48,256 bases of DNA, from the IMG/VR virus record IMGVR_UViG_3300027833_000012, positions 1 through 48,256 of that record. One strand, given 5' to 3'. Numbering within the stretch: position 1 is the first letter of the stretch; the number at the start of each line of letters is the position of its first letter. Below are positions 18,662 through 37,340 of this stretch, in pieces. A program made the position numbers and the translations under genes. The notes under the pieces are model-generated. The model was not told where the DNA came from, ran no database searches, and worked only from the letters and a program-made list of their open reading frames with translations. This DNA is from a virus (lineage: Duplodnaviria; Heunggongvirae; Uroviricota; Caudoviricetes).

Positions 18662-18717
18662 ATCTTTATGTTTTAATTACAAATATACAAATTAATTATC
18701 ATAATTACAAATTATTG

Positions 18718-18786
18718 AGCGAGAAATGGGACTCGAACCCACAACCTTCTGATTGGCCAGACGCTCTACCATTGAGCTATTCTCGC
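18718..18786 (-). pseudogene. tRNA-Gly(GCC)-like gene with a 3-nt deletion in the anticodon arm
   Basis: Near copy of 18973..19044, but the arm reads TCTG-GCCAA-TCAGA instead of TCTGG-TTNCCAA-TCAGA. Confidence 0.6.
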
Positions 18787-19094: not shown

Positions 19095-19730
19095 TCACTC
19101 CTTTTTCATTTTTCGACCCAATCTCCAGCCTTCTGGAATTAAATCGCCTTTATTTATTTTCTTACTTTCAACTTCATTGGTAATCCAACACTTACCGAAT
19201 TGAGAATTATTTGACCCAACATTTTTAGACTTCCTCATCTTCTTTTTAGTTTCCTCACTATGTAATTTACCTTTAAATGTTGCTAATCTACCTTTTAAAG
19301 CTTTTTTAACTTTTTCTTTATATTTTGGGTCTTTATGCAAATTTTTAGTTATTTCACTTTTAATTTTCCTACCTTCATCACTTTTCCAAAATATATTACC
19401 AGCTTCAGAACATTTTTTCTGATGTTCTTCATCCCTAAAACCACCTTGACCACCTACTCTTAGATTCATACAGTCAACCTTTGCAATCTCGTTAAGATTA
19501 ACTATTTCTTCTTCTCTAGATTTTAAAATTTCTCTAGTTTCACAATACTCAAGTATTTCACTAATGAAATTATCTTTTCCATGTTTTCTAATAGCTAATT
19601 TAATTCTATTTCCACTACCTAAATAACCATCATCTAAGTTATCTGTACTATGCATCCCTATATAATATTTACCACTTAATACGTTTGTGGTTTTATATAT
19701 GAAGTGATACTTTTTTTCTTTTCTTGCCAT
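19095..19730 (-). mobile_element. free-standing Seg-like GIY-YIG homing endonuclease with NUMOD3-like motif, inserted in the tRNA array
   Basis: FIYKTTN...YYIGMH...YLGSG...AIRKHGKDNF..EILE; HSEETKKKMRKSK...NSQFG. Confidence 0.88.
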
Positions 19731-21119: not shown

Positions 21120-21206
21120 CTAAAAGTTATCTAATTTGTCAAGTTTTTTTTAATTTATTTTTTAATTTATTTATAATTCACTGACTATCAGTTTATTATA
21201 TCTTTG

Positions 21207-21280
21207 TAGCGAGAGTCGGATTCGAACCGACGACCTCCAGATTATGAGCCTGGCGAGCTGACCTACTGCTCTATCTCGCA
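21207..21280 (-). tRNA. tRNA-Met(CAT), initiator-like
   Basis: Unpaired 1:72, fMet-type D-arm TAGAGCAG..GG..AGCTCG, loop CTCATAA. Confidence 0.85.
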
Positions 21281-21286
21281 ATTTAG

Positions 21287-21359
21287 TAGCGGGGGTAGGA
21301 TTCGAACCTACGACCTCCAGATTATGAGCCTGGCGAGCTAACCACTGCTCTACCCCGCA
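21287..21359 (-). tRNA. tRNA-Met(CAT), initiator-like
   Basis: Paralogue of 21207..21280. Confidence 0.85.
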
Positions 21360-21365
21360 ATTTTG

Positions 21366-21539
21366 TTGCCACGATGGGAATCGAACCCACTGCCTCTTCC
21401 TCCAACGGAAGCGAGCTTTGTATTTTTAAAGTTAGCTAAATTCAATTTAGTGATTTGCAACTCACCTCGTTTAAAAACTAACAGTTACTGAATACTTTGC
21501 AATTATATTCAGAGAAATACCCCAATGCTCCACATGACG
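21366..21539 (-). ncRNA. tRNA-Pro-like RNA with a ~110-nt structured insertion in the D-loop
   Basis: CGTCATG/CGTGGCA acceptor, GAGC...GCTC D-stem enclosing the insertion, CTTCC-GTTGGA-GGAAG arm, GTGGG-TTCGATT-CCCAT T-arm. Confidence 0.6.
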
Positions 21540-21550
21540 AATTTATTTAG

Positions 21551-21626
21551 CAGTAATAATCAGACTCGAACTGATACCTTGACAACCCATGTCGCCCTAT
21601 GCTATGACACACAACACCCTATTACT
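21551..21626 (-). tRNA. tRNA-like gene, undetermined (loop CATGGG)
   Basis: AGTAATA/TATTACT acceptor and canonical T-arm; anticodon loop not 7 nt. Confidence 0.5.
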
Positions 21627-21739
21627 AGTTTAGACAGCGGAGGAACATTTTAATTAAAGACTCCGATAGTTCTTTGTTTGTCTCTTATCTTTAATGTAGG
21701 GTCCGAGGACCATCGACTAACATTTAAGACGTATTCTTA

Positions 21740-21810
21740 GTAGAGTATACGGATTTGATACCATATTTCCAACTTTAATAGGTTGGCGACTTACTTAGTC
21801 GAGTACTCTA
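21740..21810 (-). tRNA. tRNA-like gene, undetermined (8-nt loop CTATTAAA)
   Basis: TAGAGTA/TACTCTA acceptor, GACT/AGTC D-stem, CCAAC/GTTGG stem, degenerate T-loop. Confidence 0.45.
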
Positions 21811-21814
21811 TTTC

Positions 21815-22600
21815 TTAGCTTGAGTGTTAAGCTTTGATGTTACCATTTTTAACTGTTTCCAGTCTATCACACACCTTCAATTTCTATCTGGTAGATAACA
21901 TTAAGTTGACCTCAGAGTGGTCATTACTCTTTTACATATCCTTATATAAACACTTTCGACACCCAGTCTCCTTGCGAGAGTTAAAAGGGGCTAACCTTCT
22001 ACTTATGACATCTAATTGTTGTTTTAACTTCAACCTTGAGAGTATCCATTATCTATATATTACAACAGAATAACTTAATTTTCAAGATATGTCTATCAGA
22101 ACTTTTTCTTACCAATGTTAATTTTTTAAACAAAATTTTATCTTAATAAGTTCCCTCACAGTTCAGAGTGTGTCTGATAGTTGACATTCGTGCTACCTTT
22201 TGAGTAGTTTAGAATACGACACTCCGATGTAATGTTTTACCATCACGTCAATTAAATTACTTCAAACATACGTGAGCCCTACCGAAGTAGGTAACCCACA
22301 GTTATCCCATAACCTTTCATGATGATTTCAGCTTAATATTTTTTAAATCTTCAGCCGAAATCTAACTACTTATTTATTGATTATTTCTAATCTCAAACCT
22401 CTGAGTTAAAGGTTAAGTGACTCCTAACAGTGTTATCTCGTCACCCATCGTAGCTTGCTTACCTGGATTATAAGCTCCCTCCGAAGAGTTAGCCTTATAA
22501 CGCAATAACACATCCACACTAAGCTTCACGTATTATCACTTTATCCCATCACTGGTTTATCCTTTTGTTACCCGAAGGTAACTGGAGCATAAGCACCCCA
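21815..22600 (-). ncRNA. large (~790 nt) structured non-coding RNA
   Basis: No minus-strand ORF in the ORF track, higher GC than flanks, UUCG and GNRA hairpins, 5'/3' long-range pairing, tandem promoters upstream. Confidence 0.7.
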
Positions 22601-22638
22601 ATATTTTCAATATTTTAATGAACTTTTTATTTCTCTTA

Positions 22639-22731
22639 CAAAGATACTAATTTTTTTATTAGTATGCAAGTTTTTTTTAAACTTTTTTTTTGTAATTTAA
22701 ATAACCTTTTTTTATTTCTTTTACAAAGATA
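22639..22731 (-). promoter_or_regulatory. tandem TATCTTTG promoters (22639-22646 and 22724-22731) for the ncRNA/tRNA-Met unit
   Basis: Two -7 boxes with upstream TTGCAT/TTGACA; boxA-like AGTTCATTAAAATATTG follows. Confidence 0.75.
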
Positions 22732-22771
22732 CTAAACTTTATCCGTTTTGTCAAGTTTTTTTTAAACTTTT

Positions 22772-31660: not shown

Positions 31661-31731
31661 GGAATATTGTAGGATTCGAACCTACGACTGCGGCTCTTTG
31701 GCCACCGTGCTAACCTCTACACTAAATATTC
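31661..31731 (-). tRNA. tRNA-like gene, undetermined (6-nt loop CAAAGA)
   Basis: Intact acceptor, D and T arms; GTGGC/GCCGC stem. Confidence 0.5.
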
Positions 31732-35501: not shown

Positions 35502-35535
35502 AAAAAAAAGTCCGATACTTTTATGTATCGGACTT
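35502..35535 (-). terminator. attenuator terminator of tRNA operon 3
   Basis: AAGTCCGATAC...GTATCGGACTT plus T8 abutting tRNA-Cys; leader segment CTATCGGGTT (35579-35588) can pair with its 5' arm. Confidence 0.88.
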
Positions 35536-35564
35536 ACTATATTATTTAAATGAAATCAACTCAC

Positions 35565-35648
35565 TCAATTAACAGCATAACCCGATAGGTCTACTAAGAC
35601 TAGTAAACATAAACAAAGGACTGATAATATGTTGTTAATTATATTCAT
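35565..35648 (-). CDS. leader peptide 3, MNIINNILSVLCLCLLVLVDLSGYAVN (27 aa)
   Basis: Lies between promoter 35699 and terminator 35502; codons 8-21 are 12/14 L/V/C, the tRNA species found downstream. Confidence 0.88.
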   Translation of the reverse strand: MNIINNILSVLCLCLLVLVDLSGYAVN

Positions 35649-35698
35649 TTTTAATTTAAATTTTGTGGCACTTTTTGTACCGTTATTAATATATATGA

Positions 35699-35706
35699 CA
35701 AAGATA
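35699..35706 (-). promoter_or_regulatory. TATCTTTG promoter of tRNA operon 3
   Basis: Near-identical context to the promoter at 21112. Confidence 0.82.
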
Positions 35707-35747: not shown

Positions 35748-37340
35748 TTATAAATCTTCAGTATACCCGTTATAATCTTGTCTTTTAAAATCTGATTCTG
35801 GAAATACCATGTTTTTAATTTTAGTTAAAATGTTAGCAGTCTTCTTATCCATATTTAAATTTAATCTAACTTCTTCACTTTCATTATGGAGACCTCTAGT
35901 CAATAATTTAATCACTTGGTAAAGCTCATCATCTTTAAAATTAGATGAGTTATTAGCGTTACCTTTAGATATGTGTAGTTTATTAAAAATCTTAGCGTTA
36001 TTAGGGTTTTCCAATGCATCTTTAAGACTTTGTTTATCAATACTGTAATCGTTAGTTTTAATACCCATTTTCCTATAAGTGTCAACATATAAAGAATGAC
36101 TAAACTTTAAATTACCTTCAAAATCATTTTTAACCTTTTTTAATAATTGTTCTGAAATTACATTTGTGTCAAATATGATATTTAATTCGTTATTATAATA
36201 TTTAAAATTACTTATTGTCATATCCATACCGCTTAATGTTAAAGTTTTACCTTTAAACATACGTAAAGCGTCATCCATTAGGTTCACACCTCTACTTTCC
36301 CTATCTTTTTGCATTTTATCAGCAGCTCTTCTATATCTCTGAATTAATTCAGTGGCTATTTTTTTAACTTCTTGAGGTGTTGGTTCTGGAGGTAATTCCT
36401 CTATTATCTCTTGTTCAATCTGTTCTGGTTCAATCTGTTCTTGTTCTGGAGAATCTTTTAATTTATCCGCTATCTTCTGTGCGAATTTACCGATTAAATC
36501 CTTAATACCTTCATTAAGTACTACCTTATTTTCGCTAGTAAGAGTATTCTCATATACTCTTTCTCTCTCACCTTCTGGTTTTTTTGAATTTTTAATAGCC
36601 CATTGTAACCTATCTCTAAAACCTTTATCAATTATTACACTATCATCATTAATCTCTGGGTCAATAGTATTAAATAATTTATCTAAAAATTTCTTATCTT
36701 TTAACCTACCAACAGTTACATATTCATGTTTTTTACCATTATGATGTTGATAGACTTTATGAGTTATTATGTCAACAAATATACTTTCTGTTTTATCATT
36801 ATTTGCATTCTCTCCATCTCTTATTAAAAAATTTAATGTAAATCCAGGATTATTATGTGAGTTACCATAATAGGCGTGCACAAATTTATATGGTATATGT
36901 ATATCCTTTAATACATCCTTTACTGTTGGTAAGAAATAAATTTCAGTTCCTTTAAATTTCCTTAAACCATGATTTATTAATTCATTAGCTTTATCTTCAC
37001 CATAATCACTAATGTCACTAGGTGTATTAAGTGCTATCATTGCAGCTCTGCTATATTTTTGGAAATAATTATTTGCTATTTTTTTAACTTCTTGAGGAGT
37101 TGGTTCTGGAGGTAATTCCTCTATTATCTCTTGTTCAATTTGTTCTGGTTCAATCTGTTCTGCTTCTGGAGAATCTTTTAATTTATCCGCTATCTTCTGT
37201 GCGAATTTACCAATTAAATCCTTAATTCCCTCATTAAGTACCACCTTATTTTCATTAGTAAGACTACCCTTATTTAAGTGTCTTTGTTCAGCTAATAAAT
37301 TAGCCTTAAGCATGTTTAATTTTTTATCTTTTCTTCTCAT
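35748..37340 (-). CDS. putative virion internal protein with a duplicated ~63-aa header module
   Basis: MRRKDKKLNMLKANLLAEQ start; LTxENKVVLNEGIKDLIG...PPEPTPQEVKKIA occurs twice. Confidence 0.7.
   Translation of the reverse strand: MRRKDKKLNMLKANLLAEQRHLNKGSLTNENKVVLNEGIKDLIGKFAQKIADKLKDSPEAEQIEPEQIEQEIIEELPPEPTPQEVKKIANNYFQKYSRAAMIALNTPSDISDYGEDKANELINHGLRKFKGTEIYFLPTVKDVLKDIHIPYKFVHAYYGNSHNNPGFTLNFLIRDGENANNDKTESIFVDIITHKVYQHHNGKKHEYVTVGRLKDKKFLDKLFNTIDPEINDDSVIIDKGFRDRLQWAIKNSKKPEGERERVYENTLTSENKVVLNEGIKDLIGKFAQKIADKLKDSPEQEQIEPEQIEQEIIEELPPEPTPQEVKKIATELIQRYRRAADKMQKDRESRGVNLMDDALRMFKGKTLTLSGMDMTISNFKYYNNELNIIFDTNVISEQLLKKVKNDFEGNLKFSHSLYVDTYRKMGIKTNDYSIDKQSLKDALENPNNAKIFNKLHISKGNANNSSNFKDDELYQVIKLLTRGLHNESEEVRLNLNMDKKTANILTKIKNMVFPESDFKRQDYNGYTEDL
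36355..37263. repeat. ~190-bp direct repeat (about 36355-36543 and 37075-37263)
   Basis: Near-identical nucleotide blocks 720 nt apart. Confidence 0.9.

Follow-up and report, generated by a model that had tools for sequence, protein, structure and literature searches.

A probable leader-peptide attenuator in front of a phage Cys-Leu-Val tRNA array, one of four paralogous leader units in the same genome

A short open reading frame rich in Leu, Val and Cys codons, followed by a strong terminator, stands between a promoter and a Cys-Leu-Val tRNA array in this phage genome, and we regard the unit (U3) as most likely a ribosome-mediated (leader-peptide) transcription attenuator of the trp/his/ilv type that gates a phage tRNA operon. 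The window, that is, the whole stretch of 48,256 nt analysed here, covers the opening 48 kb of an IMG/VR virus record of 187 kb (G000), and every gene in it lies on the minus strand. An attenuator at this place had been proposed in the initial annotation of the DNA, and the proposal has since been supported by the identification of a fourth unit, by a diagonal match between leaders and arrays, by homologs in other phages, by co-variation and by the lack of another promoter. U3 and the array behind it consist of the following features.

35739-35731, minus strand: A-tract (sequence reading)
35729-35699, minus strand: promoter of the form TTG-N20-TATCTTTG, with the -33 TTG at 35729-35727 and the -7 box TATCTTTG at 35706-35699 (pattern scan)
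35681-35667, minus strand: hairpin at the 5' end of the transcript, GGUAC-A5-GUGCC (fold)
35648-35565, minus strand: leader ORF with ATG start, 27 codons plus TGA (ORF call)
35627-35586, minus strand: sensor run, codons 8-21, of which 12/14 are Leu, Val or Cys (codon reading)
35608-35589, minus strand: hairpin within the sensor run (minimum-energy and centroid folds)
35588-35577, minus strand: predicted antiterminator strand (segment 2), codons 21-24 (duplex energy, folding, homolog co-variation)
35535-35508, minus strand: 11-bp stem of the intrinsic terminator, with U8 at 35509-35502 (terminator search, folding)
35501-35428, minus strand: tRNA-Cys(GCA), the first gene behind the terminator (ARAGORN; Rfam 56.6 bits)
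35409-35149, minus strand: 86-aa ORF inside the array (ORF call, no Pfam match)
35142-34580, minus strand: remainder of the array, tRNA-Leu(UAA), Val(UAC) x2, Leu(UAA), a 48-codon ORF and Leu(UAG) (ARAGORN, ORF call, Rfam)

The anatomy is that of an attenuator: promoter, ORF, terminator and tRNA genes are all present as previously described, and the string of codons given for the leader, TTA TCA GTC CTT TGT TTA TGT TTA CTA GTC TTA GTA GAC CTA, is exactly that of codons 8-21 (L S V L C L C L L V L V D L). The promoter was assigned by the pattern TTG...TAnnTTTG, which we take to be the sigma-A type promoter consensus of the Bacteroidota (Bacteroidetes), and its type suggests a host from this group. 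Near-identical copies of it stand at the head of further leader units, at 21142 and at about 70046. Besides the leader's own, no second promoter of the form TTG-N17-21-TAnnTTTG was found by pattern scan from 35760 to 34480; since the array has no other consensus promoter, its transcription must cross the terminator, which argues for conditional termination. The 5' hairpin may serve in RNA stabilisation, and hairpins of differing sequence occupy the equivalent place in two of the paralogous units described below (U1 and U4). The start region of the ORF is A/U-rich, unstructured and devoid of a Shine-Dalgarno sequence; the hairpin predicted within the sensor run could possibly be a pause element that is melted by the translating ribosome. 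A spacer of 29 nt separates the ORF from the terminator hairpin. Just 5' of the promoter, at 35748-37340, lies a 530-aa ORF with an internal duplication of about 60 residues, in which a long motif occurs twice. For the array itself, the order of the tRNA genes in the initial annotation, Cys(GCA), Leu(TAA), Val(TAC) x2, Leu(TAA), Leu(TAG), agrees with both ARAGORN and Rfam (48-70 bits). The U-tract had also been correctly placed just before tRNA-Cys, except that the gap of 1 nt does not exist, U8 touching G 35501 directly (0 nt). Relatives of the 86-aa array ORF adjoin tRNA genes in other phages; the loci reached through it were too distant, with mixed arrays, and our detector saw no leader in them.

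U3 is not alone. When the record was queried with the U3 leader region, the promoter, the 5' region and the first codons were found to recur at several places, and three copies have, like U3, an ORF of 27-35 codons followed by a strong terminator. All four tRNA arrays of the 187-kb record are preceded by the same module, the fourth of them outside the window.

U1, 21142-20895, minus strand: paralog of U3 with promoter 21142-21112, 35-codon leader 21066-20959 and terminator 20926-20895; array Pro Pro Gln Gln Tyr Lys Lys Thr Tyr ... Gly Thr Gly
U2, 33333-33102, minus strand: paralog of U3 with promoter 33333-33303, 30-codon leader 33242-33150 and terminator 33125-33102; array Phe Glu Asp Glu Ala Asp
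U3, the unit under study: array Cys Leu Val Val Leu Leu
U4, G000:C1:69817-70046, outside the window: paralog of U3 with promoter, 31-codon ORF rich in Arg/Ile/Asn/His/Ser/Trp and terminator; array His Trp Ser Ser Asn Asn Ile Arg Arg Arg at 69379-67049, separated from the terminator by two small ORFs and a tRNA-like element

The four arrays, with two Met tRNAs added, partition all 20 amino acids, and although the grouping follows no obvious chemical logic, the leaders still follow it. Between codons 2 and 20, the codons matching the unit's own array number 17, 13, 11 and 17 of 19 for U1 to U4 (binomial P 2e-7, 3e-5, 2e-5 and 5e-8); for U3, these are the 11/19 Leu, Val or Cys codons, against a share of 0.153 in the proteome (P=2.5e-5). 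A matrix of leaders against arrays, counted over 20 codons, is diagonal (17/0/0/3, 2/13/0/5, 0/1/12/7 and 1/1/0/17), and it is so in four genomes. The choice among synonymous codons adds little to this. The claim that the Leu codons of U3 match the supplied anticodons did not survive, because genome codon usage, with TTA at 72%, predicts the same (TTA x4, CTA x2, plus one CTT; p=0.36 by synonymous resampling, not significant alone). When all units are pooled, synonymous codons match the array anticodons weakly above expectation (p=0.015), and the codon-choice argument was dropped for U3.

The leaders of different classes open with a heptad close to M-(K/N/R)-T-(V/I)-N-N-I (35648-35628, 33242-33222 and 21066-21046, and likewise in the related genomes G001, G003 and G004 introduced below). 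The common promoter, 5' hairpin and N-terminal heptad suggest that one ancestral module was duplicated and that its sensor run was rewritten for each array. Some loci depart from the simple layout. At U2, the terminator is separated from tRNA-Phe by an ORF of ~100 aa (about 33081-32764) together with a second promoter (32750-32720), so that the U2 attenuator may be bypassed in this genome; in G001 and G004, the U2-type terminator directly adjoins tRNA-Phe. The region 21206-22754 contains two tRNA-Met(CAT) genes and tRNA-like sequences uncalled by ARAGORN, behind tandem strong promoters (22754, 22669). Both leader ORF and terminator are absent from this Met locus, and Met thus appears to be the sole amino acid without a sensor. 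Array A carries an inserted homing endonuclease gene (19095-19730, a 211-aa ORF with GIY-YIG (SegE-like) and NUMOD3 motifs), and ARAGORN reports tRNA-like genes with two-base 'anticodons' (type ???) at 18717-18786 in array A and at 31661-31731 in array B.

Relatives in other phages were found by way of a 605-aa OmpA-domain protein encoded between the arrays; they are viral contigs with about 70% identity at the protein level. The leader-terminator-array design is retained in G001 (a complete 362.5-kb genome with terminal repeats), G002, G003, G004 and at locus L101, and three of these have a homolog of U3.

G001: 30-codon leader, then Cys Val Val Leu x5 Met Val Leu
G004: 25-codon leader with GTG start, then Cys Leu Pro Val Val Leu x4
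L101: 24-codon leader, 10 nt before Cys Cys Val Val Leu x4

The comparison of homologous leaders that had been suggested as a check therefore speaks for the attenuator: the three other phages keep the Leu/Val/Cys composition and not the order. All four peptides share composition and N-terminus while the order of residues within the run differs, as expected for selection on codon content and not on peptide sequence. In the other leader classes, homologs carry synonymous changes within the sensor run. Leaders also track arrays that are altered or of another make-up. In G003, an Arg/Ser/Trp leader precedes a reduced Ser-Arg-Arg array, and in LR756500.1, a 462-kb GenBank 'uncultured phage' (locus L051/L052, 118985, minus strand), a leader of 24 codons, in which His, Glu, Val, Trp and Leu abound, is followed by a terminator, and the unit lies 30 nt before tRNA His-Glu-Val-Trp-Leu. 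The same record contains another possible leader at 95104, upstream of Lys-Met-Phe-Met. The match is imperfect for Pro (G004 array C) and Gln (G001 array B), neither of which has a codon in its own leader.

Regarding Val, the codon GTC occurs twice in the U3 leader (35621-35598), though it makes up 3.5% of the Val codons of the genome, and in the Leu/Val/Cys leaders of G000, G001 and G004 the commonest Val codon, GTT, accounts for 2/15 and for 0 within codons 8-21. Rare or hard-to-read Val codons might sharpen the sensor.

Searches with the nucleotide sequence reached less far. Megablast and blastn of the U3 unit against 50,697 phage records gave no homolog, only stray tRNA hits, and the sole result of an exact promoter-pattern scan was a near-identical copy of U1. 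A scan with the 15-mer ACAGTTAACAACATA recovered further leaders of the Phe/Asp/Glu/Ala type and, through L101, one extra Leu/Val/Cys leader; a scan with TTAACAACATATTAT gave nothing useful among the matches listed. In the Caulobacter phage phiCbK (JX100813.1:49540-49769), a 45-aa CDS (gp083) and a predicted terminator lie directly before Pro-Pro-Lys-Lys-Leu x3-Ser x2. By hand count, P/K/L/S make up 23/44 residues of gp083, which is also rich in Ala and Thr, both absent from the array. phiCbK is a cultured system in which the leader idea is testable.

The terminator of U3 has 11 pairs (about -16 kcal/mol), and the full transcript folds into it. Within the ORF, CTATCGGGTT (35588-35579) is a near copy of the terminator 3' arm and can pair with the 5' arm, as had been claimed: the duplex comprises 7-9 bp including two G-U pairs (-8.2 kcal/mol), and leaving the 3' arm out of the U3 fold places segment 2 opposite 35535-35525, at the base of a three-tier stem in the minimum-energy fold. 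Taken alone, the U3 antiterminator is not significant (codon-shuffle p=0.14), and it is the weakest among the 14 units compared. In the initial annotation, U3 had been called the cleanest of three cases, which holds for its geometry and fails for its energetics. In the homologs from G001 and G004, the corresponding duplexes reach -15.5 and -15.9 kcal/mol (codon-shuffle p<=0.0015), and the copy of the 3' arm embedded in the ORF tracks the terminator from one genome to the next (TATCGGGTT in U3, GTTCGAGCT in G001 and GTGTCGGACT in G004).

U3 in the window: segment 2 UAUCGGGUU, terminator 3' arm UAUCGGACUU
G001: segment 2 GUUCGAGCU, terminator 3' arm GUUCGAGCU
G004: segment 2 GUGUCGGACU, terminator 3' arm GUAUCGGAUU

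Co-variation was scored by duplex energies and permutation. Since MAFFT set the 5' arm of G001 one column off, duplex energies were used rather than a count of aligned structure pairs. Across the 14 units, duplexes between ORF and 5' arm average -12.0 kcal/mol for cognate and -8.3 kcal/mol for non-cognate combinations, and the cognate sum was reached in 0/100,000 permutations (p<1e-5). Segment 2 also ends at a similar place, between ORF nt 64 and 79 (codons 20-27), in 13/14 units. This co-variation is the strongest evidence that the predicted alternative pairing is real, and it supports the weak duplex of U3.

From this arrangement we infer that the leader ORF is translated, as well as the direction of the switch and the feedback. 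Host RNA polymerase would start at 35729-35699 and ribosomes would translate the 27-codon leader, the model assuming that transcription and translation are coupled in the host. When Leu, Val and Cys codons are decoded fast, the ribosome would arrive at codons 19-28 or the stop and cover or unwind segment 2 (35588-35577); the terminator hairpin (35535-35508) would then form, and transcription would stop in U8 before tRNA-Cys. When charged tRNA-Leu, Val or Cys is scarce, slow decoding would stall the ribosome in codons 8-17, the free segment 2 would pair with the emerging terminator 5' arm, the terminator would be blocked, and polymerase would continue into tRNA-Cys, the 86-aa ORF and the Leu-Val-Val-Leu-Leu tRNAs. 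The new tRNAs would hasten decoding and turn U3 off again, a negative feedback. Folding with a ribosome mask, in which a 28-nt footprint is placed at each codon and the folding is thermodynamic and not kinetic, puts the sequestered share of the 5' arm at about 80% for A-site positions 1-17 and at about 0% for positions from codon 19 to the stop. The modelling thus follows the classical logic, in which a stall in the Leu/Val/Cys run means read-through and smooth translation to the stop means termination. By the same folding, and unlike in trp and his, a ribosome held up at one of the last three or four sensor codons (18-21) would hide segment 2 and so promote termination. A further difference from trp and his concerns the paralogs whose ORFs have longer tails: there, segment 2 is out of reach of a ribosome at the stop, and an OFF state in these units would need kinetic coupling or extra hairpins or structures.

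Another possibility is that the leader does sense decoding speed and that a stalled or missing ribosome acts on Rho access, on RNase processing or on the stability of a leader-tRNA precursor, the hairpin serving chiefly for processing or stability. The position of the hairpin right against the RNase P site of tRNA-Cys, the weakness of the U3 antiterminator, and the paralogs with long ORF tails, in which a ribosome at the stop codon would not simply occlude segment 2, would all suit such a scheme. However, the hallmark of intrinsic termination, a G+C-rich stem with 5-10 U behind it, is present in all 14 units and at L101, and the co-variation between segment 2 and the 5' arm across genomes would be unexpected were the pairing irrelevant; we hold this alternative to be unlikely.

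What happens in the model when no ribosome is present bears on a further alternative. In ribosome-free folding, the antiterminator is preferred in 10/14 units, with a score of 0.79 for U3, and U3 is accordingly predicted by the model to be ON by default. Unlike the trp and his leaders, U3 has no clear 1:2 protector helix, which likewise predicts that it would be ON without translation. Both observations could be taken to mean that the units are switches of timing or of global translation capacity, ON when no ribosome trails the polymerase (very early in infection or upon translation shutdown) and OFF once translation is efficient, with the cognate codons secondary. Such a switch would leave unexplained that the codons of each leader match the array it precedes and that leaders track their arrays in G003 and LR756500.1, and we find it very unlikely. 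Least credible is that U3 is a gene for a small hydrophobic membrane or toxin-like peptide with its own terminator, whose tRNAs are expressed by leak-through and whose composition matches the array by coincidence, because, whereas a hydrophobic core of 13 residues, as is usual for small membrane peptides, and a Leu codon choice that mirrors genome usage speak for it, the homologs conserve composition over sequence, neither this nor the other leader peptides match any Pfam family, and the three paralogous leaders, with the same promoter and N-terminus, are hydrophilic and each match their own array (Lys/Tyr/Thr/Gln/Gly/Pro in U1, Phe/Asp/Glu/Ala in U2, Arg/Ser/Asn/His/Trp/Ile in U4). The hydrophobicity of U3 thus follows from sensing Leu, Val and Cys and is no sign of a membrane toxin.

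Read as a leader-peptide attenuator, U3 has its closest counterparts in enterobacterial systems. Attenuators of this kind sense several amino acids in ilvGMEDA/ilvBN (Leu, Val, Ile) and thr (Thr, Ile), and a single one in trpL, hisL, leuL and pheL. For pheL, the attenuation mechanism has been described (PMC3082878). Like the ilv and thr leaders, U3 has a short ORF with putative regulatory codons for several amino acids and then a predicted intrinsic terminator. As in those leaders, its putative antiterminator uses the end of the ORF and excludes the terminator, so that the position of the ribosome would pick the fold and slow decoding would lead to read-through. In contrast to the enterobacterial leaders, U3 would regulate tRNAs and not biosynthetic enzymes, the loop closing on decoding capacity instead of amino-acid supply; four paralogous sensors partition 19 amino acids in one phage genome; and the promoter is of the Bacteroidota type, with a start that has no Shine-Dalgarno sequence. 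The pheST operon of E. coli (pheM leader) is a cellular case in which leader-peptide attenuation controls a synthetase in response to one amino acid. As in pheST, attenuation at U3 would govern a translation component for the sensed amino acid, whereas the regulated genes are tRNA genes and viral. T-box riboswitches, too, sense tRNA charging, choose between terminator and antiterminator and control genes serving the same amino acid, but they bind uncharged tRNA directly, with a conserved fold and no ORF, while the sensing element of U3 is an ORF. None of the Rfam families Leu_leader, Thr_leader, His_leader, Trp_leader and T-box matched at gathering score; only sub-threshold, terminator-type matches were obtained (e.g. 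Thr_leader with 20.7 bits against a cut-off of 55), and T-box gave no hit. Full-text searches of the published literature turned up no account of tRNA genes controlled by leader peptides, be it in cells or in phages. What would be new here is that a known attenuation mechanism serves a class of genes for which it had not been described, in a modular layout with multiple sensors.

What phages gain from their tRNA genes has been a matter of debate for decades, and to our knowledge the regulation of these genes is almost unexplored. The main ideas are codon compensation and escape from tRNA-cleaving defences (e.g. PMC10264068). One could imagine that the four units together form a four-channel homeostat of decoding speed, in which four sensors covering 19 amino acids each activate the tRNAs for slowly read codons, and which would act as a counter-defence sensor answering host tRNA loss, beyond compensation of codon usage. 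We put this forward as a tentative possibility. Host tRNA loss would, in such a scheme, come from anticodon nucleases, from other tRNA-targeting defences or from the phage's own shut-off of the host, and the phage would detect and answer it during infection, a form of counter-defence sensing. If U3 and its paralogs do work as attenuators, classical attenuation would extend to RNA genes, and each unit would be a small natural device that gauges decoding speed for as many as six to eight amino acids together. The dependence of phage tRNA expression on tRNA depletion would also be open to direct test. The tRNA supply of the phage would be driven by demand, host ribosomes gauging the decoding speed of each codon group and the matching tRNAs being made.
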